DNA of 64,000 nt, taken from Neodothiora populina. Its lineage: Eukaryota. The stretch is from contig NW_027191414.1 in the NCBI RefSeq assembly GCF_041146345.1, forward strand, positions 1,364,001 to 1,428,000, given 5' to 3'. The notes beneath the pieces were generated by a model. That model was given only the letters and a program-made list of their open reading frames with translations. It had not been told where the DNA came from and did no database searches. The position numbers and the translations under genes are program-made. Of this stretch, positions 1-62,754 are shown piece after piece. Position 1 is the first letter of the stretch. Every line of letters begins with the position of its first letter.

Positions 1-1355
<1,355 letters not shown>

Positions 1356-2421
1356 ACGCCTTGTTTTCAAACTGCCATTCCCGCGCGAAAGCCGCGAAGC
1401 TACTACCGAGCAAGAGACGCATTCCTCTCGTACCAGAGCGAGACAAAGAGAGAAGAAATGGCTCTCATCTCGAGGCCTTTTTTCGCAACCCTCTATTTCC
1501 CTGCTGTGTCAAACGCCGCAGTATGCTACCCGCAGGCAATTCCACACCGAAATACAAACAACCTTGCATAGCGGGGTCATGGGGCTTTTTTTTCTCTCGC
1601 TCTTGGGGATTTTCCTTATTGTTTTCATCATCTGCCTCTTTTTTTTTCGTTTTGTCTATCGGGGCTATTTCGCAAGCACACAGGAGTCAAAAGAAACGGG
1701 TGGAGGGAGTTTTGAGAAGGAATCAAAAACGAACATGTATTAGAGAGAAAAAGAGAAGGCTCGTACAAGAAAACGGGGACATGAGAGGGTAAATCGTAAG
1801 AAGAGGCAGAGAGAGGCAGAAGTGGGCAAAAAACGACACCAGCACCTTTCCCGGGTCTTTTGGTCAAGGCTCATACCCGTGGGGAAAACAAGAGAAGTGC
1901 AGGAGTAGACGAGACAGATCCTCTCTCTGTCTCTTCAATCTCTCTTCTCTATTCGACGACATCCCTCGCTCGATAGCAAAAGTCCAAATGCAAGACAAAG
2001 ACACCTTATTACCATTTTCTCATCCATTCATCCACGTTTCTATGCCTATGTGGATCTAATTATCTACGGATCCGTCATCTTTATCTTTCTGTTCAATTAC
2101 TCGTCGCGTTCATCGGTCTTCTCTTGGCCTACTACCTGCTCTAGCAATGTACTGATTCACGAGTATATTCGTCCACTTATGCAGTCGAACATGTCTCCAT
2201 TCATGCGTTCAGCTATTATTCAGTCCTCTACTCACTTCTTCTAGTCAACTAGTAGATATCCCATCCACCCAAATACTCATCCATGCGATAAATCACCTCT
2301 GGGTTGAGATGGCCATATAAGAGCAGAAAGCAGAAAGAAGCTCCACGCAGTGGCGCCGTCCGCGCAGGACAATTCCTTATGAGAGCAAGTCAATTCTAGT
2401 AAGACATAATATACATGTAGG

Positions 2422-4241
2422 CTAAGCGACGACGCCTCTACTCTTCAGTTCTTGTATCTGCTCGTCCGTCCTGCCTAGCACCTCCCTCAGAATCTCAGCC
2501 GTATGCTGCCCCAGCGTCGGCGGCGCGCTCCTGATGCCCGGTGTCGAAGCCGAGTACTTGACAGGTGTATTGACCAGCTTGATCTCGCCGCACGTCGGAT
2601 GCTGCACCTGCGTGACCATGTCCCTGGCCAGCACGTGCTCGTGCGACAGCGTGGCTGCGATGTCGTTGATGGCTGCGTACGGCAGGCCGCTGCCTTGGAG
2701 CACGTCGAGCCAGGATTTGGTTGTTTTCGTGCGCGTCACCGTCTCGATTAGCGATTCCAGCTCGTCGCGGTGTTGCACGCGCAAGGCGTTCGTGATGAAG
2801 CGCGGGTCGGTCGTCCATTCTGGGTGCGAGAGGCGGGCGCACAGCACGGAGAAGAGCCGGTCGTTACCGCCGCCCAGCATGATGTCGCCGTCGGAGGTGT
2901 GGAAGCCGCGGTAGGGTACGATGGAGGGGTGCGCCGTGCCCCAGCGGCCGCTGTCGGGTTTGCCGGAGATGAGATGCGAGGAGGCTAGGTTGGAGAGGGT
3001 GGCTACTTGGCAGTCCGAGAGGGAGATGTCGATGTGTTGCCCGCCGTTTCTGCCAGGGGTTCCGTCAGAGGAAGAGATTTTGGATCTTGCTAGTAATGCT
3101 GCCATGATTGCGTTCGAGGTGTATAGTCCTGTCGTTAGGTCTGTCACCGCTACGCCTACTTTCACGGGCGGTCCGTCTCGGGATCCGGTGATGTGCATCA
3201 GACCCATTTCACTGTTTTTTGTTGGTTAGACGTCAGTGCTGTGTTGGAAAGAGAGCAGGGAGATTGTGGCAAAGTCAAATTGTGTCGTGGTCTGCGTGAC
3301 TTTGACCCGTCTTATGCTATCGCTTCCTCCTTGCAGCTTTTTCTGCTCACCACAGTGACGCGGTAATAGAGATGATAGAGACGATGGAGAAAGGAAAAAA
3401 AAAAAGACTCACGCCTCGACCATGACATCGTATCCCGCTCGATCACTGTAAGGACCCGTCTGCCCATAACCAGTGATACTTGCATAGATCAGATCAGGAT
3501 TGATCTCGGACAGGGTGTCGTAGTCCATGCGGTACTTCTTCAATGCTCCCGGCAGATAGTTTTCGACGAGCACGTCTGCGTTCTTAGCGAGCTCGTGCAG
3601 GATCTTGACGCCTTCTGGGTGCTGAAAAGAAAGGCCGAGGGATTTCTTGTTGCGGTTGACCTGTATTTTGGCGTATGTCAGGATGGAAATGGAAGAAGAA
3701 GAGAGTCACGCAGTGGTTCAGAGATCATCAAGATCTCGAGATATAGATATTGTACAACAACTATCGCAACTCACCGAGAGGTAATAAGCACTCTCGCCAG
3801 CCTCATCTACCTTGTCGCCTTCTATGTGCTTGGCATATGGCGGGCCCCAAGCACGAGTGTCATCGCCACGGGTTGGATGTTCAATCTTGATGACTTCGGC
3901 TCTATTTGGTCACAAGCAGCATCAGCAACACGGGACGCCAGACTTCAAACCCTCGCAGAAGGTCATACAGAGCAAGTCATCTCACCCAAGATCTCCTAGT
4001 ATTTGTGTGCAATATGGCTATCACAAAATCAAGTCAGGACTCGATGCTCACGAGGTTTGGGACTATATTGTCTTACGCCAGCCAACACCCGTGTCATATC
4101 AAGCACTTTGATCCCTGCCAATGGTAGTGTCGCCGCATTCGACCAGCTCGCTATAGAACTGGTGAATGCTCTACTCTGGCCGACCAATCGAGACGGGTTC
4201 ATGTTACGCCCGCATCGAAGCGGTAATCTGGACAAGACCAT
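2422..4241 (-). CDS. CoA-transferase family III (CaiB/BaiF; succinate-hydroxymethylglutarate CoA-transferase-like), multi-exon, probable mitochondrial presequence
   Basis: [17 protein letters not shown]|..[48 protein letters not shown] and PPTLGQHT motifs. The N-terminus is Arg/Ser-rich. Confidence 0.92.
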
Positions 4242-4922
4242 GCTTTGAACGACACAGCAAGATTAAAAAGCAATTGGGAAGAGATACCGCTGTCGAAAAA
4301 AGACGATGTTCACAAATCCAAATTGTAAATATTTTTGCGTCAAGTTGAGCACTCGCATGTTGTCAGAAGCCAACTAATTATTGGAGTTAAGCGGGAGCAT
4401 CGGTCCTGACTTGCCGAGGCTTGTTTCTCCAATACTGTAAGGATTCCCCGAGCACCCATTGTCTCGCAAATACCAGTCTTCTTCTATCGACAGAGAACGC
4501 AAGGGATCTTCAATCACTCGTAGGACTGCATCACGACCTCCAGTCCGAGGCACAACACTCGCCAAAAGAGAAAAGAAATGCAGTCTGTCGCCGCTTGCGG
4601 CTGAAAGGCCGACGAAACAGCCCCGGCAAAGATGATCTGATTAGATGATCTGAAACGTTAGTGACCCCGACTTCGGATAGCTACATCCAGCGAATCAGAT
4701 ACATCCATCTTGCGGGGTAGATAAGAGGTATATATGTACCCTAGTCCTGCTACCAGTATTATACTGGATGGTGAGGGAACTAGTTGTCGTTCTGGTGATT
4801 CTTCATTGATCAGAAGTCTGTTAAAAGAAATCATCAATCCTTCTTGAATTGACAGCCATTCACCTCTATCAATTGGCTTACATCTAAGAATCCTCAATCT
4901 ACCTTGCCTACTGATCACCACT

Positions 4923-5873
4923 ATGGATAAGCAATCGTACCTCCCCAGAAAAGATTCAGGTATTGAATTGGACGACAAATATGAGCATACTACCGGTTTT
5001 CTGGACTTGCCACCCGAAGTTCGTACCTCAATCTACGAGCTCATCTTTGATCCAGAAGAGAGTCGGCGACTAGCATATCACCATCCTGGCCAGCCGGATA
5101 GTCTGCACGAAGAATACTATGCATCAGATCACCTCAAGCCATTACTGACCTGTCGTCATATCTACTCTGATGCACATCTTCTTGCTTTTTCTCGTACTAC
5201 TTTCGTCGTTCGAAATCCATTTACATCCAAAGACATATCCAAGCGTCTTCAATCACGGCTGTCTCAATCCCAGATTCAGTCAGTTCGCAGTGTATCATTC
5301 GTCGCCGAGGCAGACCACTTCAGGTCCATGCGTAACTGGAAAGGTCATGCATTCGGAAACACCGAGCTATTTCTCGATCATCTAGACATTGTACTTCACA
5401 AAAGCAGCTACTGGCATTACATGTTCGACTTCAATACCATCATGGTTGAGCTGCTCAGGAACCTCAAGTCAGTAAAGAGGATAACATATATCAAAAATGG
5501 AGGTAGAGTGAAGCCTCACTTCCATACTTGGTTCAACAGGCTGGGTGCTGCGATCCTGAAGTTCGATGAGCTCTATCGCTTTGTCAATGGTCAGCCTGAA
5601 GAAAGATGGTGGGCATGGGAGTTTGATGGTCGCGCGCAGACGGCCAGTCTAATTGCCAGACCTGCAAAGCCTGCAGATTTGTCGCATGCAGAGTATGAAG
5701 AATATATGCGACCGATCAGGGAAGATCTGACGAGAAGTATCGAGGCTGAGGCTTACGATCCAGACCCAATGTCAAGGAACGGGTATGTTGTTGTTCTTCC
5801 CTCACTCTCCTTGACGCGGACGTAAGGCATATAGATAGCATAGCTTTATTGACTTTCCTATCTTAGGTTTTGA
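4923..5873 (+). CDS. Fungal hypothetical protein with an N-terminal F-box-like motif
   Basis: 300-aa ORF with FLDLPPEVRTSIYELIF..LLTCRHIYSDA. A likely terminal intron 5783-5866 gives ...NGF* at 5873; unspliced, the stop is at 5825. Confidence 0.7.
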
Positions 5874-50711: not shown

Positions 50712-52546
50712 ATGACTTCCTCCTACGACCCCAATGCGACTAGCGGCCCTCACCAAAGCGACACGATGCCGGACTCACATTTCAAGAAGGGAACTTACAA
50801 GGATGAATCAGACTTGACTTTGCATGACTCCGAGGTCGGCTCCTCCAAAGCGCCTGCTGACAATATGTTGGTCGTGTTAGGGTATCAATCTGAATTAGCC
50901 AGGACCAGGTCAACGTTGCAGGTTGCTTTCATGTCCTTCGTGCTCAGTTCGATACCCTTCGGTCTGTCAACTACTTTCTCATACCCCTTAGTTGGTGGTG
51001 GTCCCGCCGCCATCATCTGGGGCTGGGTAGGTGTGTCCCTGATCATTGTCTGCGTGGCCGTGTCTTTGGGTGAAATCACGTCTGTGTATCCCACCGCTGG
51101 CGGTGTGTACTATCAGGCGTACATGCTGTCTCCGCCCGGGTGTAGAAAATTATTGGCCTGGATCTGTGGATGGTCTTATACGCTCGGCAATGTCATCATC
51201 ACCCTAGCTGTCAATTTCGGTCTCGCCCTCTTCATCGGAGGATGCGTCAACATCTTCAAAGACAGCGAGGGAAACAACGTTTTCGCAGCTGAACCTTACC
51301 AGATCTTCCTGATCTTCCTAGCAATTACCTTGCTTTGCAATGCGGTCTCTTCCCTCGGAAACAAGTGGTTGCCTATTCTGGACGTGCGTATCACCATGCT
51401 CTCGTGACGAGGCTTAATTTTCCCTATCCCCCCGATCTCATTCTGGAAGTTGTGCTTACATGATCACACAGACCTTTGCGATTTTCTGGACTTTCGCTGG
51501 TGTCCTCGCTATTATCGTTTGTGTTCTTGCAATCGCCAAGGAAGGTCGCAACAGCTCCAGATATGTCTGGGGAGGATTCGTCAATGATTCCGGCTGGACC
51601 GATGGCTGGGCGTTCTGCGTAGGCCTCCTGCAGGCGGCATATGCGACATCAGCCACTGGGATGGTCATTTCGTAAGTTTTCGTCTTTGCCACTCAATGCC
51701 GATCCAAGTATACTTACGTGAGTATCAGAATGTGTGAGGAAGTCAAGCAGCCCTCGACGCAAGTCCCCAAGGCATTGGTTGGCACCGTTCTCTTGAACCT
51801 TGTCGCTGGTGTCGTCTTTCTTGTTCCTCTGGTGTATGTCCTTCCTGATATTGCTGCCCTTCTTGCGGATCCTTCTGGTCAGCCTGTTCCAGCAATCCTG
51901 GCGTCAGCGGTTGGCAGCAAAGGTGGTGCGTTTGCACTTACCATTCCCCTCATCGTTCTTGGCATCATCTGTGGTATTGGTTGCACCACTGCCGCATCTC
52001 GTTGCACATGGGCTTTCTCTCGCGATGGCGCCATTCCCGGATCGCATTTGTGGAAGCAGGTCAACCCAACCTTGGGCGTACCTCTGAACGCTATGATGTT
52101 GAGCATGATCGTCCAGATCGCGCTTGGTTGCATTTACTTCGGTTCGGCTGCGGCGTACAACGCCTTCAGTGGTGTCGGCGTCATCTTCCTCACCGTCAGC
52201 TACGCAATACCGATCTTCGCCTCGATGCTCAACAACCGCAAGCAGCTTGTTGGTGCTCCGTTCCACATGGGTGCCTTCGGCGCTTTCTGCAACTGGATAT
52301 CCATTGGTAAGTTGGAAGATGTAATCAGATCCATGTGTAGATGGTGCTAACGTCCATTTAGGCTGGAGTCTTCTCGCTGTGCCCTTGTTCTGTATGCCTT
52401 CAGCCATTCCTGTGACACTGAACTCGATGAACTATGCGTCAGCTGTGTATGCTGGATTCATGTTAATCGTGATGGTCTGGTATTACGCCTGGGGGCGCAA
52501 GAACTACCAAGGACCGCCGCAAGAGGATCACGAGATCCTTCAATAG
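50712..52546 (+). CDS. Amino acid/choline/GABA permease (APC superfamily, ACT family), 4 exons
   Basis: LGYQSELAR, GEITSVYPTAGGVY, MCEEV, SRCTWAFSRDGAIP and MNYAS motifs. Confidence 0.92.
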
Positions 52547-53296: not shown

Positions 53297-54164
53297 CTAC
53301 CATGGATATTGCCCATGCTCATGCACGAAACATCCGTGTTCAGCATCTCTCCCGCCATTGAGGAGCTTGACTATAGGCGCGGCGCCCTCACTCGTTGGCT
53401 TCGCTCCGTTGTCAGCGTTATTGTTTTCACTCAAGTTCGACACGCAGAACCCAGGACAATAAGCAAAGATCTTGAAGCCTTTTGGTCCATGGTGATATAC
53501 CTGGCATGCAGTCACCATGTTCAAGGCGGTTTTGCTGACGCGGTACTGTTCGCCTGCGATGTTGTATCCTGGAGATGTCGGGTCTAGGCGCTTTGCAATA
53601 GATCCCACGCCACTAGAGACATTCACTATCCGTGGAGTCCCGTTCGATTTGCTGAGCAAAGGCGCGAACTTGTCAACCATCACCATTGGACCGATGGCAT
53701 TGGTCTGGAAGCACTGTGCCATCTGCTGTGCCATGGTACCCTGACCAAAAGCCACAGCAGCATTGTTCACTAGAGCATCGAGGCTGGCAGATAACACAAC
53801 ATCAGCAGGTCGATCACCCTACAGAGCATGAAGCCTGGCATTGTAGTGTACATACCGGCCATACTTGGTCTCAACAGCTTTAGCAGCATCCTCGATAGAA
53901 TCCTCGCTGGAAACGTCGACTTCCAACAACTCCACCGTACCCGGCTGCCTCTTCGACTCTAGGTCCTTGATGGCGACTTCGCCTTTGCTAACAGAGCGGC
54001 AGCCAAGGAGGACGAGTTTGGAGGCGTCCGACAAAAGCTGAGACACCAATTCGAGGCCAATGCCTCCATTAGCTTTGGATCGTCAGCGAACACATATCTT
54101 GAGTACGCATGCCGTAAATGATCGTACCTCCGGTTACCAAGACGATGTTCTTTGCAGCAGCCAT
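53297..54164 (-). CDS. Short-chain dehydrogenase/reductase, 3 exons
   Basis: IVLVTG|ANGGIG, LVNNAA, NVSSGVGS, YRVSK (YxxxK) and CPGF motifs. Confidence 0.9.
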
Positions 54165-55128: not shown

Positions 55129-56226
55129 CTATCGCTCCAGTAAATCCTCCCGAGGGGTATCTTGTCTATGCATTCGCTCCCGAGTGTCACAACCCAGCCA
55201 CAACAGATCCGGGCGGCTGTAATGCCCACAGATATCTAGGAAGCTTCGCGCGAAAATGGCATGGCTGAAATCGAGGTCTGCAAAGACGCAACCTTCGGTA
55301 GTGGGACCTAGAGACTCACTAATGACACGACCGTCTGGCCCGACCACAGCAGATGATCCACCTCCGGCGGCGTTCATGAGCATACCGGCCTCGGTCGACA
55401 TGGCCTTTATGCCCTTTTCGGTGATGACCTGTGTCGCATGTAGCACGAAGGCTTGTGATTCGATTGCGTAGACTTGAGACAGACTCAAGCATCCTAAGTT
55501 GACTATTCAGTACAAAGGGAGCCCAAGAATGTGTGTGGTTCTACTGACCTTCTGAAGTCATCGACCAGAGACCCGGTCCACCATCGTGTGGCACGATCGG
55601 CGGCCAAGCCGAGCAATGGATGTCTTCCTTCTGATGGATGCTGTGATACTTGAGCAGAGGCTGGGTGTGTTCCCAGCAGGCGAGCGTTCCCACGCGTCGA
55701 TCGAGAGATGTGGATGCTACATTAAAGAGACTCTTGCCAGAAGCGTCTCCGAAGATGGTTCTTTCCATGTGAGTAGCCTTGAGCTTGCGTCGGGTCATGA
55801 GCATCTTGCCGTCCGAGTCGATAAGCGCTTGAGCAATGTAGAGCGAGTTGTTATCGTTCTCCGAGAACCCCAAAGATACAACAACCCCTGCCTTGGCTGC
55901 ACATGCCTGAATCGTGCGCATCTCATCCGAGTCTACTGCTAAAGAGTTCTGAATGTACTTTGTGCTCAAAACAGGGTCCAGAGGACGACTCCTGTGGATA
56001 ATCCGGAGTCAGTACATTGTCTTTGCTTTCCAATATTTCGTGTGGCGACTAACCAAATCCATGCAGGATATCCTGGGATGAACGCCTCTGAGAAAGTGAC
56101 AAGTTCAGCGCCTCCTTCGGCGGCTTCTTCGATGATGTGGCATGCCTTCTGGACCGACTTCTCCAGGTTGAGCCATTCGGGCTCGTGCTGTGATACAGCG
56201 ACTCTGACTGTCGTCTTCTTAGTCAT
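55129..56226 (-). CDS. Nitrilase (carbon-nitrogen hydrolase branch 1; aliphatic/arylacetonitrilase-like), 3 exons
   Basis: Catalytic triad FSE(A)[17 protein letters not shown] and [10 protein letters not shown]-terminal [15 protein letters not shown] (not CWEN) argues against a cyanide hydratase. Confidence 0.95.
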
Positions 56227-56841: not shown

Positions 56842-59159
56842 TCATACATTATATGTCGTTGGCCCTTCGTTATCAAACAGCCAGTCAAGGTATGAAGCAT
56901 CCATACCCTGAATAGCAGATGCCAGGTCATCATCATGTTGCAGTGGTGGATCTTCCCAGAAACTCTCGATTGTGGCGTGTAGCGCTATATGGTCGAGCCC
57001 GTCATCAACTCGTATGGCATGAGATGCGAATCCAGGATCGACTCGAGGTGTCGCGTCTTTCTTTGCTGCCTCTCGTGGATTCGATAATGGCCCACTGTGC
57101 GCGATTGGCAAGGTCCATACGACTTCCCACTTGTGGGCAAGCTCTTGTATTCGCCTGAAAGCAGCTCGGGCACGATGACCCCATCTGTCTTGCATCTCGT
57201 ACAGGGCGTCCACGCAGATCCGCACACCATTGGCAGATCGCCGGCCGAGAGGAGTGCGACCTGCAGTAGCATTGAGTAGATGAATGACAGCGGCCGTGAG
57301 AATGTAGTCTATTATCTGAGGGGAAATGCTCGTGAAACTTCGTAGTCGGCGGTAGGCGCGAACGATCTTGGTTATGGTTGCCGCAGCCGTAGTCACCGAC
57401 TGAATGGCAAACCGGCCTGCCGGACTCTTGCCTGATTCATCAAGCAGCGGCCGATGAATCAATATGAGCGAGGTTTGATAGCTGAGTTGTAGCCAGACTA
57501 CAGAATCTGGCATGTATCCTTTGCTCAGTCGCAGTGCTTCATCATTCTCGCTGTTGAACTTCACGAGACTTTGATGTGAACGAAGCACCAGAGCTGTTTT
57601 ATCCTTCCTATCGAGCTGCGCCCAGCCGAAGGCGTATCTGATGATATTGTCAGTCACACGGCGTGTACAAATGGAGAGGGCTCATTTTACGTTTGATCCA
57701 TACAGGAGTCCCATAGATGCCATAGTTCGCAGAATCGGTCGTGCGCTATGTCGTCGACACCAGGGGCGCCTGGTAGTATAGATAAGAAGGAGGGCTGCCG
57801 AACTCGTTGCCAATGCATAGTACAATTCATGCCCAGGCTAGACGTAACAAGCCTTGGAAAAGAAAAAAAGTTAGGCTAAGAGTCCGCTGCGTATGTTGGG
57901 GTCCATCATACCGATCTACTGAAAAATATGCAGAAAAGGAGCGTACACGACGTTTGTAAGCAGACGAGTGGACTGCAAAAGAAGAGTCTGGACTAGTCAA
58001 TGCAGTTACGTGCAGTCCAAGGTGTAGGACTTGTCCTGTTGCCATTGCTAGAGGCGGAGAAATGTCAGTATCATGACTTGTTGCATACCATCGTAACACA
58101 TGTGCAGAGGTCAGCTCACCTATCCAGTTGTATGCCATGCTGTGAGCACCAAGCATTAGGTCTCTCCAACCGAGCAAGGCCAATCCTTGGATAACCAGGT
58201 CACTCGGTTGACTCGCGATACATTGCAATGCAAGATTTGAAGCATTAGAGTAGTAGTTTTCCTCAAGCAACCGGACATGCTGCTGGCCCGAGAAGAATGA
58301 TGCAACCGCAAACAAGGCGTTATTGCGAAAATGGGCGTCTAGTTCGTTTTCACCTTCACTGCCATTGACAAGCAGATTGGCGTCTTCTGAATCAAGAAAA
58401 CGGTGATAGACATTGAATTCGTCCATGAAACATGCCACCAGATGCTGCCTGAGCTCATGGTTGGAGGATGTTGATAGGCTAGTGTTTAGTTCTCTGACAT
58501 TCGCCTTTGGACCAGCCTGAGACACCGAATGTGAATCAGGCACCGTACTCTGGATAGAAGAAATCGTGAAAGAAGGCTCTCCACGGTCCTCAATTTGCAC
58601 CTTAAGCATCAAGGAAGAAAGTTCTTCAATGGCAGCTGAAGATCTGATATATGGTGAATCGCCGCTTCCTTCGTAATCATCGAAGGATGTGTTCCCTATG
58701 AGGTCTGAGGACGTGCTTCTCTCTTGACCGATGCCTTCGTGCTCATGAGCCAGTGCTCTGGAGGGATCTGCGAAAGACCTATCATGCTCATTCGATGATC
58801 TGGCTTCCAGCAGTGCGTTTTGCAGTGTATTAATCTGGTCTTGTAGATTGCGTATGAGCTCTTCATCTTGATACTTTCGTCTGTTTGGCTGTCAGCACTG
58901 CCTCACAAGCGTAGCAGAACGTGAGCATCTCATCATACTTGCGACTCGTCTCCGGGATGTACAAGCATGTGCGCCCTGATCGCTGACACAGGAAGCAAGT
59001 AGGTTTTGCGCCATCGCACTAACTCAAGGTCAATTACAAGCGACTAATATCATACACTGCACATCTTATGCAATAATGCCCTACCTTGCGCTTCCCTTTG
59101 CGACACTCCTCGCAGGCGTTCTTAACGCGAGCACGTGGTTTAGTCTGTTCGTCGTCCAT
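56842..59159 (-). CDS. Zn(II)2Cys6 binuclear-cluster transcription factor with fungal middle-homology domain, multi-exon
   Basis: ACEECRKGKRK|CDGAKPTCFLCQRSGRTCLY, a coiled-coil linker, LHLGLH..RRVRSF..YFSVDR and LILIHRP. Confidence 0.93.
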
Positions 59160-59743: not shown

Positions 59744-60841
59744 ATGGTATTTCTCATCGATCTGGGTGATGAAGATCTCCTTTTCACGTACGCTATCTTC
59801 GGCGTTCAGCACCCGACGATGAGCGCGGAGAAGAAACGTCAAATCAGTACTCTACATGACTTGTTGTCATCATCTGCTGGACGTGTAGACCAGCTATGCG
59901 ATGAAGATCATGGCACAAAAGGAGGACACATGCCCCCTTCAACGACTTTCGTTGCATACTGGCTACGCAGCAGTGACTACGAGGAGTTTGCCCAATCGAA
60001 GGCATTTGCAGACTTCTGGAATGATCTACCCGACGATGCTGGCGTCTGGCGGGAGGTCATGACCGTGCCAAAGGCGCGTTATATGTTCGCTGCGAGTCAA
60101 GAAGTGAAGTGGGGCTTAGCCACGATGTCGGAGCTGAAGATCAGTAACGATGAGGGCTATTGGGGAGTATATCGACACCGATTGGGCGATGTAGGAGACA
60201 CATATACGTCTCCATATGTAACCAACACCATGAATAGCACCACCTCTCCAGAGACCGCAGCTGAAAATGTAGAGACTGCGAGACCAGTCTTGAGCATACC
60301 CCAGCCAGGGTCACCAAGCATCGAAGGCGAACAACCGATTCGACGTGGCAAGGTCACCATTACGAATCCACCAGATAACCTATGCTTCGTTCGCGAAGGA
60401 CAGCGCCAGCCTCACGTTTCAAAAGAGGAGGTCGATCTATGGATCGAACACATCTCCCCTCACGCAGCCTCCTGGATTGACCATCTTGACACCAATCGTC
60501 AGAAGAATGGAGTCATGACATTTACAACCCACGTTGGACGTGACAGAGTCGCGAGCAGTGACACTGTCGTAGAAGCTGCACCTGTAGCTGAGACAAACCA
60601 GCTGGCATTCTTCCTTGATCTTGCACATTTTGAGCGTGCAGGAAGAAGTCACAAAGGACACGTACAATTAAGGAAGAATGTCATGCAGCATTATGGACCG
60701 GGAGGCCAGATGCAGAAGCTTGGCAAGGCGGAACTGTTTGTCGAGTTATGTGTCTTGAAGAGCGGTGACTTGATCGCTGAGTATATTGGATGTACAGAAG
60801 GGACCGGGCTGATGTGGCTCGAGTCAGACACGAAGAATTGA
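59744..60841 (+). CDS. Heme-containing aldoxime dehydratase (Oxd) homolog with non-canonical catalytic residues, single exon, 365 aa
   Basis: FGVQ, VAYW, GVWREV, EGYWGVYRHRL, DNLCFVREGQ, FERAGRSHKGH and AEYIGCTEGTGL align with Oxd blocks (EHGYWGSMRER, NIALIRSGQ, ERWSESHPTH, EYINCHPGTGM). First ATG is at 59744. Confidence 0.88.
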   Translation: MVFLIDLGDEDLLFTYAIFGVQHPTMSAEKKRQISTLHDLLSSSAGRVDQLCDEDHGTKGGHMPPSTTFVAYWLRSSDYEEFAQSKAFADFWNDLPDDAGVWREVMTVPKARYMFAASQEVKWGLATMSELKISNDEGYWGVYRHRLGDVGDTYTSPYVTNTMNSTTSPETAAENVETARPVLSIPQPGSPSIEGEQPIRRGKVTITNPPDNLCFVREGQRQPHVSKEEVDLWIEHISPHAASWIDHLDTNRQKNGVMTFTTHVGRDRVASSDTVVEAAPVAETNQLAFFLDLAHFERAGRSHKGHVQLRKNVMQHYGPGGQMQKLGKAELFVELCVLKSGDLIAEYIGCTEGTGLMWLESDTKN

Positions 60842-62321
60842 CCGCTCGTAACCGCATATTCGAACAGGCTCAACTCGTATGCTCAGAACACTGGTTGTCT
60901 TCAGCTTCGTCGTATACTCATATGCAATACGTACATGTTGACTATTTTGTCGAAGGTGATGTTGTTAGTGATGATCCTGAAGCTAGTTTGCCATAGTGAC
61001 AACCCCTGTAGATCTGCCGAACCAGAAGCGACCCCGGATCCGCAACCTACGGGTCCAGTTTTCAATGGTTGGTATCTACAACAAATCTCCATCGTGTCAC
61101 GACGTGCCATTACCAACCTGTGTTGCTATATCTTCGCTAGACTCACTTGTATACTTTACCGGTGACGAGTGCCCTGGGTGGTGTTGCAATTGAATCTACA
61201 TGTGATGATTCGGCCCATATCCGAGACGGTCAGTCCGGATCATACTGTAGCATGAATGAGTTCATCATGACTCAGCTGCTGTACTGGTCTTCCAGCACAG
61301 ATTGTTGTATCAGTTGCCTACCATGTAAGCCTATCAGGAATGGACATGTATTGCATCGTCGCGACCACATGTGATCAAAGCTGTCACGCTGGGCTGCTAC
61401 CACGGACATATGATCAGCAGATGTTGAGATGTATGGATGCAGCTCTGCCAGGGTCCATTGGTGCTTTTGGAAATATGCAGATATAATCTTATCATCCGCC
61501 GGTACTATACCTACTATGGATCAGCTCTTAGAAACTGGATCAATATCATGAACGACAACGGCGGCCAGATCGATGAACAATAATTCACTCGACAGTTTCA
61601 CGAAAGCTACTACACCTGTGTTTCTCCGGATCCGTTTTCGTATCTTACAGCAAGAGTACACCGGTTCTGAACCTCATCAAGATTCTGCAGATGATGCCAG
61701 CAGCTCTGCTTGGCAATATCCGTGCAAATAAACGCATGATCATCCTGGCCAGGATATATACGAGATCATCCTATTTCTTACTTCCACGGTCCAATAGTTG
61801 TGCTCGCATGCTACTCCACAGGATGAAACGGCAAGCACGGCTAACACTTCCGGCCATGGCATGCGATTTCTGCTGTTTATTGGATTCGAGAAATATAGCC
61901 TTGCTCAGAACGAGTAATTTCTCGGAGAACTCAGCGGGAGAATCCATTCGAAGGTCATATCGCACCACTGCCAAGGACATCCAGAAACGTCCATATTACG
62001 AGTTTGCAGCGCGGGTCAGGCATTCCACGTTGTCATTGTGGAGTCCGATATATCGGTAAGGCATAGACACCTTAAGTCTTCGTGGCTGGTCCACTATATG
62101 GTCTATGCGGCTGACATTGCTCAACAGGCCAAGAGTCCTACCATATGCACTGTTCAGACCCCCGCTATTAACGTCACACCGTATGTATCCCTTCATGACA
62201 TGTATAAAGGAGTGTGAGAGTACGAGGATGGTCTCTTTCTCTGCCATTGACTGTAATTCTTCAGATCATAGACTCCGACCTTAACGTATCCCAATCTGAA
62301 ACAACCGCAAAGAAAGCCAAC

Positions 62322-62754
62322 ATGTCTTTCCACCTTTCTGCCCAGGAGATCCACATCGCCGACAACCACATCCTCAGAGCACGTCTCCAGACCGAGAGCG
62401 GCGAATGGCGGGAATCCGAGATCGATCTTGACAACCACATTGGAAACATCAACGGCATGTTCCAATGGGACAGCGCTGGTGAGTGGAGTCTCTCCTGCAA
62501 CGAAGAAGCAAGTAAGAGTTGACCATGTCCAAGGTTTCTCCCAGACTGCTCAGAACGCACACTTCGCCATCGAGGGTGGCGGTCAAGTCCCCGTCCTCCG
62601 TGCTGAGCTGTTCAACGAGGCCGGCGAGCCCATCTCCCGCGACGTGAACTTGGCCGAGAGAATCGAGAACCACGACGGTCAATTCGTCTACAGTATGAGA
62701 TCCATCTGATCAAGTCACAAAGATATGCCAGCTGACAATTGCCCGATAGCCTAA
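62322..62754 (+). CDS. Cyanovirin-N homology (CVNH) lectin, exons 62322-62478, 62534-62692, 62750-62754
   Basis: MSFHLSAQEI..HILRARL..SEIDLDNHIGNINGMFQW..GFSQTA..VLRAEL..DVNLAERIENHDGQF; internal two-repeat CVNH pattern. Confidence 0.92.

Follow-up and report, generated by a model that had tools for sequence, protein, structure and literature searches.

A REV-type aldoxime dehydratase gene next to nitrilase and Zn2Cys6 regulator genes in Neodothiora populina

Aldoxime dehydratases (Oxds) are sought for cyanide-free nitrile synthesis. The canonical enzymes OxdRE (PDB 3A15-3A18), OxdA (3W08), and OxdB (7F2Y) have RSH or RTH sites, and in OxdRE the residue Glu143 orients His320. R178, S219, and H320 are named as site residues of OxdRE (PMC12582005), and H299 is described as its proximal ligand, with S219 and H320 on the distal side (PMC4835899). 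Binding of the aldoxime to the iron through its nitrogen is described as established for all Oxds (PMC8049032). In the canonical mechanism outlined in the same source, the oxime nitrogen sits on Fe(II), the hydroxyl is held by Ser and His, and Arg protonates His. Water then departs and His takes the C-H proton.

Sites called 'REV or REE' are widespread in fungi and understudied according to a 2024 review, which uses the term REV after Kristkova et al. 2023 (PMC11568032). Two REV enzymes and one REE enzyme are listed there. OxdSs, the indolyl-3-acetaldoxime dehydratase of Sclerotinia sclerotiorum (Pedras et al. 2010), is known from native purification without recombinant expression. It accepts indolyl-3-acetaldoxime and a few related compounds, and phenylacetaldoxime is not a substrate (PMC11568032). 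A low activity of 0.014 U/mg is given for the enzyme purified from the fungus (PMC8955678), and IAOx dehydratase activity in Sclerotinia is described within the IAN route to auxin (PMC10459833). OxdAsp is a 'non-classical' Aspergillus ibericus enzyme (Pei et al. 2023). With recombinant OxdAsp in E. coli cells, conversion of cinnamaldoxime and citronellal oxime at 100-200 mM was nearly complete. OxdFv of Fusarium vanettenii (REE; Kristkova et al. 2023) is also reported active. Clusters of oxd, nitrilase, and regulator genes are described in Bacillus sp. OxB-1, Bradyrhizobium, Fusarium graminearum, and Ochroconis mirabilis (PMC8955678, PMC4738786), and in F. graminearum and Ochroconis the Oxd and nitrilase genes are given as adjacent (PMC4738786).

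The window analyzed here is a stretch of 64,000 nucleotides from Neodothiora populina (contig NW_027191414.1, positions 1,364,001 to 1,428,000), and its features are listed in Table 1. The protein of interest matches the profile PF13816 (Dehydratase_hem) from end to end (residues 17-356, profile positions 1-310 of 310, E 1.6e-75). The score is 254.8 bits against a Pfam cut-off of 25, and the start Met is the same as that of the homologues. In the PDB, sequence matches are confined to the three Oxds of solved structure. An AlphaFold2 model built from 77 sequences (pLDDT 88.9) has the fused two-ferredoxin alpha+beta barrel of OxdRE, OxdA, and OxdB, with Z 34.6-36.4 and rmsd 2.2-2.5 Å over 307-317 aligned residues. 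The best non-Oxd fold reaches Z 7.6, and Foldseek is in agreement. Profile match, alignments, and model together confirm the initial annotation, in which the gene was an aldoxime dehydratase with RSH replaced by R-E-V, and its residue pairs with OxdRE, and they bear out the Oxd fold.

A profile search of the genome contigs (23.96 Mb, 18 contigs) found one true Oxd gene, so that it cannot be a redundant companion of an RSH enzyme. A second candidate, on contig C4 (L002, G000:C4:1063521-1066814), was rejected. Its frame at 1141-1989 (+) matches PF13816 weakly (33.5 bits, profile positions 202-306), the Oxd motifs are absent, and it encodes a different, membrane-anchored-looking protein, which begins with a hydrophobic stretch, has a single ferredoxin-like half, and looks like one of the DUF4188 type. 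One RNA run gave two short contigs, both off the Oxd gene.

Table 1. Coordinates of the genes, residues, and linker discussed in the text (positions in the window)
Feature	Position	Strand	Remarks
Nitrilase gene	55129..56226	-	three exons, 173+443+365 bases = 326 aa + stop
Zn2Cys6 fungal transcription factor gene	56842..59159	-	several introns; divergent from Oxd, 584-base spacer
REV-type (Tyr-Arg-Glu-Val) aldoxime dehydratase gene	59744..60841	+	365 aa, single exon, stop-free translation
Met114 for OxdRE Glu143	60083..60085	+	Glu in 73/73 His-type, never top residue in 35 Glu-type representatives
Tyr143 (OxdRE Met175; OxdAsp Tyr138)	60170..60172	+	helical turn before Arg146
Arg146, catalytic arginine (OxdRE Arg178)	60179..60181	+	Arg in 120/120; 3A15 alignment
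Pro/Thr/Ser-rich inter-domain linker, ~residues 152-200	60197..60343	+	exceeds bacterial RSH enzymes, mostly clade-wide
Glu218 (OxdRE Ser219; OxdAsp Glu192; OxdFv Glu187)	60395..60397	+	Glu in 114/120, Asp in 3/120
His306, proximal heme ligand (OxdRE His299)	60659..60661	+	118/120, remaining two are truncated sequences
Val333-Glu334 (OxdRE His320-Glu321)	60740..60745	+	distal His gone

Residues were paired with those of OxdRE by a phmmer alignment to 3A15, whose chain has 20 extra N-terminal residues that were subtracted for numbering. The pairs are R146/R178, E218/S219, H306/H299, V333/H320, and E334/E321. The codons of R146, E218, H306, V333, and E334 begin where they had been placed at the outset (60179, 60395, 60659, 60740, and 60743). 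A wider alignment was made by profile search of representatives at 50% identity (314 matches, 150 of them listed and 144 of these new). It holds 112 sequences, namely 103 of the 144 new representatives (300-460 aa; 41 dropped) and 9 closer proteins. His is found at position 320 in 73 rows (His-type), Glu or Asp at 219 without His320 in 35 (Glu-type), and neither in 4. This alignment gives the same residue pairs and places M114 at OxdRE Glu143. The proximal His is kept in all 35 Glu-type and all 73 His-type representatives.

In close homologues (120 listed of 133 found, with the query counted among the 120; named sources all ascomycetes), the five key columns read R-E-H-V-E in 105 of the sequences listed. 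The other 15 are 7 truncated sequences, 3 with R-D-A, 2 with R-E-A, and 3 single deviants. Since the substitutions are clade-wide, they do not come from chance or decay. None of the 120 has His at the V333 column or Ser at the E218 column. As for another distal His or Ser, which would speak against the initial annotation, His306 is the only His or Ser column kept in at least 80% of the Glu-type rows, and His145, His303, and position 115 are variable among close homologues. Glu334 was considered as a substitute catalytic residue and rejected, because the same residue follows His320 in 72 of the 73 His-type rows. Two other site variants were seen: a fungal R-D-A subgroup (P0093, P0099, and P0114, from L011 and L012) in which Asn stands in place of the Tyr, and a single protein (P0195) that combines Asp at 219 with His320 (R-D-H).

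The identity of the query to canonical RSH/RTH Oxds is 16-19%. Fold, proximal His, catalytic Arg, and flanking motifs are common to both, but Ser/Thr219 has become Glu (E218), His320 Val (V333), Glu143 Met (M114), and Met175 Tyr. The query also has ~27 fewer N-terminal residues and a linker that is 31 residues longer. With the canonical Glu143-His320-Ser219 relay absent, a different acid/base set is required, as had been proposed. The query scores 62.8 of 600 bits against the OxdA equivalog NF050090 and falls below its cut-off; OxdSs (46.7 bits) and OxdAsp (33.3 bits) likewise fail.

The three enzymes of Table 1 of the review were recovered among the matches by accession: OxdSs is listed as XP_001597459.1 (P0135), OxdAsp as XP_025572196.1 (P0159), and OxdFv as XP_003042958.1 (P0327). 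OxdSs is 57% identical to the query by BLASTP and 60% by alignment. It shares the Y-R-E-H-V site, and the two proteins agree at each of the 14 site and pocket positions that were compared. The query linker is 9 residues longer and a second loop is shorter. Note that the P0135 model has 347 aa against 361 aa in its cluster mates, ends ~14 residues early, and is without the conserved C-terminal Cys-x-x-Gly-Thr-Gly; this short database entry is probably a gene-model fault. OxdAsp belongs to the same PF13816 family and is 34% identical, with Y138-R141-E192-H287-V313 corresponding to Y143-R146-E218-H306-V333 of the query. It differs in having Gln at the Glu143 position (Met in the query), Phe/Trp at two pocket positions (Val/Phe in the query), and a shorter linker (Arg-to-Glu spacing of 51 versus 72). 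OxdFv is 32% identical. Its site is I138, R141, E187, H275, and E303, of which Arg, Glu, and the proximal His are shared with the query, and both enzymes are without Glu143 and His320. Glu303 of OxdFv is found at Val333 of the query and Ile138 at Tyr143. That Glu303 might really be the next-position residue was rejected, since E303-E304 of OxdFv align to V333-E334, and E334 pairs with E304. The query is thus not of the REE type. With R146, E218, and V333, as in OxdSs and OxdAsp, it is of the REV type, a definition read from the name.

The query is an ordinary member of the named fungal Oxd branch, closest to OxdSs, and its REV site is already known, being shared with two enzymes reported active, OxdSs and OxdAsp. 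The initial annotation spoke of a barely characterised clade and of a Fusarium vanettenii enzyme with a similar site. The first holds in so far as information on REV/REE enzymes is short and links between site and substrate need experiments (PMC11568032), but the type has a name and two listed REV members. The second holds for a non-RSH site with Arg and Glu, but that enzyme is REE, not REV, and is only 32% identical.

A FastTree phylogeny was made with 84 rows chosen by hand, of which 21 are close homologues, 26 are distant Glu-type and 27 His-type sequences, and 10 are bacterial (of 18). In the midpoint-drawn tree, the 27 RSH/RTH rows lie on one side with a support of 99. The query and OxdSs are within a 20-row group (support 100). 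OxdAsp is in a sister group and joins them in a group of 39 rows (support 100). The bacterial rows are on the Glu side, outside the 39-row group.

These bacterial relatives come from a search of GTDB genomes in which five distant Glu-type proteins were the queries and which gave 19 loci (L020-L038), in most of which the match lies at about 4001-5000. Oxds were extracted from 18 of them (without L035). Fifteen are Y-R-E-V and three are Y-R-E-A, where the search words select Tyr or Glu themselves, not Val/Ala. The hosts are Proteobacteria (mostly MAGs), Pseudomonas sp., Arthrobacter zhaoguopingii, and Pseudonocardia. Among 102 scanned neighbor ORFs (of 169), nitrile hydratase subunits are found in L021, L033, and L037, amidase in L023, L033, L034, L035, and L037, and acetamidase/formamidase in L038, while nitrilase is absent from the 102. 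Nitrile hydratase, amidase, or acetamidase is therefore near Oxd in 7 of 19 loci, a raw count with no background comparison. In four gammaproteobacterial loci (L029, L032, L035, and L038) a thiolase-like gene (PF18313) is directly upstream of Oxd on the same strand. The review places REV/REE sites in fungal homologues (PMC11568032). No description of bacterial REV members was found in the searched literature; the sequence-space paper or its supplements may include them.

In the window, the regulator gene is placed between the nitrilase and Oxd genes. All three nitrilase pieces match PF00795, the exons are open, and the introns (62 and 55 bases) are GT..AG. The Glu-Lys-Cys triad is carried in the words SEAF, RRKL, and CWEH. 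In the regulator, the six-Cys motif is spread over two exons with a 66-base GT..AG intron, and the Fungal_trans match is weak, below cut-off. With Oxd linked to a nitrilase and a regulator, an arrangement common for genes of this kind, the locus has the makeup of an aldoxime-nitrile cluster. It differs from the printed clusters in having a Zn2Cys6 regulator between the two enzyme genes, and may differ from the fungal ones among them in its REV-type Oxd.

Seventeen related metagenome loci were compared, and six of them extend for 5 kb or more to one side. In three of these six fungal loci a nitrilase is found within 10 kb of Oxd. L004 and L005 have nitrilase-regulator-Oxd with order and strands as in the window, and in L006 the nitrilase is 3 kb downstream of Oxd. 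The other three of the six (L007, L008, and L011) show neither nitrilase nor regulator. A regulator homologue is in the same place in L004, L005, and L016; L016 is short and its regulator adjoins Oxd. The Oxds of L004 and L005 are 97-99% like an Aureobasidium pullulans protein, and that of L006 is 84% like an Exophiala protein. Because the DNA of L004 and L005 is 98% identical, the nitrilase linkage is seen in two independent lineages besides the window. Across the linked loci (L004-L006), conservation is higher for the nitrilase, with 68-81% by exon, than for Oxd (53-54%) or the regulator (41-46% over the long pieces). Chance adjacency is unlikely, as the genome has one true Oxd and ~9 nitrilase-superfamily loci (12 exon matches). 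The initial annotation had also allowed for other chemistry, which has little support with a nitrilase in the neighborhood of the gene.

An SDR gene (53297-53797, -) and an amino-acid permease gene (50712-52350, +) stand beyond the nitrilase gene. Both were rejected as cluster members, being unmatched in all 17 related loci. On the other side, 1.4 kb downstream of Oxd, there is a spliced gene for a cyanovirin-N homology (CVNH, PF08881) lectin (62214-62709, +).

Another feature of the protein is its inter-domain linker. The spacing from the catalytic Arg to the Glu is 72 residues in the query and 41 in OxdRE numbering, so that the insertion is 31 residues rather than the ~35 first estimated. 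It is Pro/Thr/Ser-rich as described (43% of residues 152-200), but it is mostly a feature of the clade: the median spacing is 63, a spacing of 72 is found in 3 of 120 listed sequences, and ~22 of the 31 inserted residues are clade-wide and ~9 extra. Residues 151-200 are modelled at lower confidence (block pLDDT 69-84). The linker was also considered as an intron. This was rejected and the linker is taken as translated, because homologues share its words and, of the seven GT..AG candidates in it that keep the frame, none shows a branch site within its last 30 bases.

The best explanation of these data, and one that we hold with high confidence, is a fungal REV-type heme b Oxd that takes aldoxime to nitrile and, with the neighboring nitrilase, to acid. 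Heme b binding and aldoxime dehydration in the ferrous state are predicted from homologues with the same site. Ferrous heme would be carried on His306 and bound by the aldoxime nitrogen, as in all Oxds. Co-variation suggests that Glu218 holds the oxime hydroxyl and takes the C-H proton, that Tyr143 extends into the space left by the change of His to Val and donates the proton for the departure of water, and that Arg146 tunes both. From the linkage, the nitrile may be passed to the neighboring nitrilase to give acid and ammonia, and the divergent Zn2Cys6 regulator may control the pathway. The role would be detoxification of plant aldoximes and nitrogen gain from them.

The part given to Tyr143 needs separate discussion. 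The residue was overlooked in the initial annotation, which had R146, E218, H306, and V333 right. Among the listed representatives, OxdRE position 175 is Tyr in 30 of the 35 Glu-type rows and in none of the 73 His-type rows, and position 143 is Glu in 73 of 73 His-type rows and Gln or Met in most Glu-type rows. The association of Tyr with site type (Fisher p 7e-22) is overstated, as the rows share descent on one branch; the Tyr split follows one deep branch and so reflects few evolutionary events, not 108. A search for REE proteins gave 22 new matches, of which 5 under 280 aa were dropped. The OxdFv group has Glu/Gln at 320 in 18 of 19 rows and Tyr in 0 of 18 (2 gaps), and its single Val row (1/19) carries the Tyr. 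The alignments suggest that in every site type a single additional polar group lies close to the heme, be it His320, Glu/Gln320, or Tyr175. In the AlphaFold2 model, Tyr143 is one turn before Arg146 on helix 142-149, so the two should face the same way. A catalytic triad of Y138-R141-E192 with H287 as ligand was reportedly proposed in the OxdAsp study. In the OxdFv study, R141A and E187A are said to be inactive and E303A active. The residue numbers of these two studies match the alignments exactly. A full-text literature search for Y138/R141/E192 with aldoxime dehydratase gave nothing relevant among the matches listed. On balance we favor, with some reserve, a Tyr143 that replaces the distal His as proton donor.

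The main alternative challenges the Tyr step and not the activity. In a two-residue site, Glu218 would be both acid and base, Arg146 would set its pKa and steady the leaving hydroxide, and Tyr143 would be a mere space filler or pocket shaper. OxdFv is reported active with Ile at the Tyr position, so Tyr is dispensable in some backgrounds, and together with the reported inactivity of R141A and E187A but not E303A this means that Arg and Glu alone may suffice. Tyr is also absent in 5 of 35 listed Glu-type representatives. A space filler does not account well for the close sequences listed, where Tyr is found in 113 of 120 and the equally space-filling Phe is rare (3 of 120), nor for Tyr being missing exactly where 320 is His or Glu/Gln, and Y138 was reportedly named as catalytic in OxdAsp. 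We regard the two-residue site as the less probable of the two, but as a serious contender.

It is very improbable that the protein is mainly a redox enzyme (peroxygenase, peroxidase, or catalase) working through a distal Glu-Arg, with dehydration as a side activity. It is reported that H320D in OxdA raises catalase, peroxidase, and peroxygenase rates 2.5- to 36-fold (PMC5391958), and OxdSs is slow even on its best aldoxime (PMC8955678). However, Glu218 occupies the Ser219 position and not that of His320, OxdAsp is an efficient dehydratase with the same site, and Oxd is linked to nitrilase in the window and in two other fungal lineages, while in bacteria it is linked to nitrile hydratase or amidase. 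It is scarcely credible that the protein is a decayed copy or one that binds heme or oxime without catalysis: His320 loss is described as abolishing dehydratase activity in RSH enzymes (PMC8456930, PMC5391958) and the query branch (0.39 in FastTree) is somewhat longer than those of its nearest relatives (0.21-0.27), but the substitutions are present in 105 of 120 listed sequences and in active enzymes, and the frame is intact in the sole Oxd of the genome.

For the preferred reading, a REV-type Oxd feeding a nitrilase, the pocket gives a hint of the substrates. V2, A116, V313, and V333 stand at OxdRE M29, L145, F306, and H320, where the register at 145 is alignment-dependent. The OxdRE cavity is described as lined by M29, L145, A147, and H320 and as widened by smaller residues (PMC8456930), and M29G and F306A give OxdRE aromatic oximes as substrates (PMC11568032). 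The small pocket residues of the query would thus fit bulky aryl-alkyl or indolyl aldoximes, like the substrates of OxdSs, and plant aldoximes of this kind are the most likely substrates.

What is added here is the exclusion pattern of Tyr, His, and Glu, the linkage to nitrilase and regulator, the bacterial Y-R-E-V group, and OxdFv as REE. The significance is modest, and neither a new enzyme class nor a new pathway is revealed. A wider reading, which is tentative and rather doubtful as a whole, is that the Glu-type is a second deep branch of Oxds, in which a Tyr on the Arg helix replaced the distal His as general acid and the Glu of REE enzymes replaced Tyr, and that its OxdSs-like members serve an auxin route. 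If so, the Glu-type branch would span fungi, Proteobacteria, and Actinobacteria, and the OxdSs-like subgroup, with nitrilase and its own Zn2Cys6 regulator, would be an inducible fungal pathway by which plant indole-3-acetaldoxime is turned into indole-3-acetic acid (auxin). The gene would also give recombinant access to a subgroup for which a single native preparation of low activity is all that is known. As the gene is intact, consists of a single exon, and belongs to the OxdSs subgroup, it should make the substrate range and the acid/base question easy to test.
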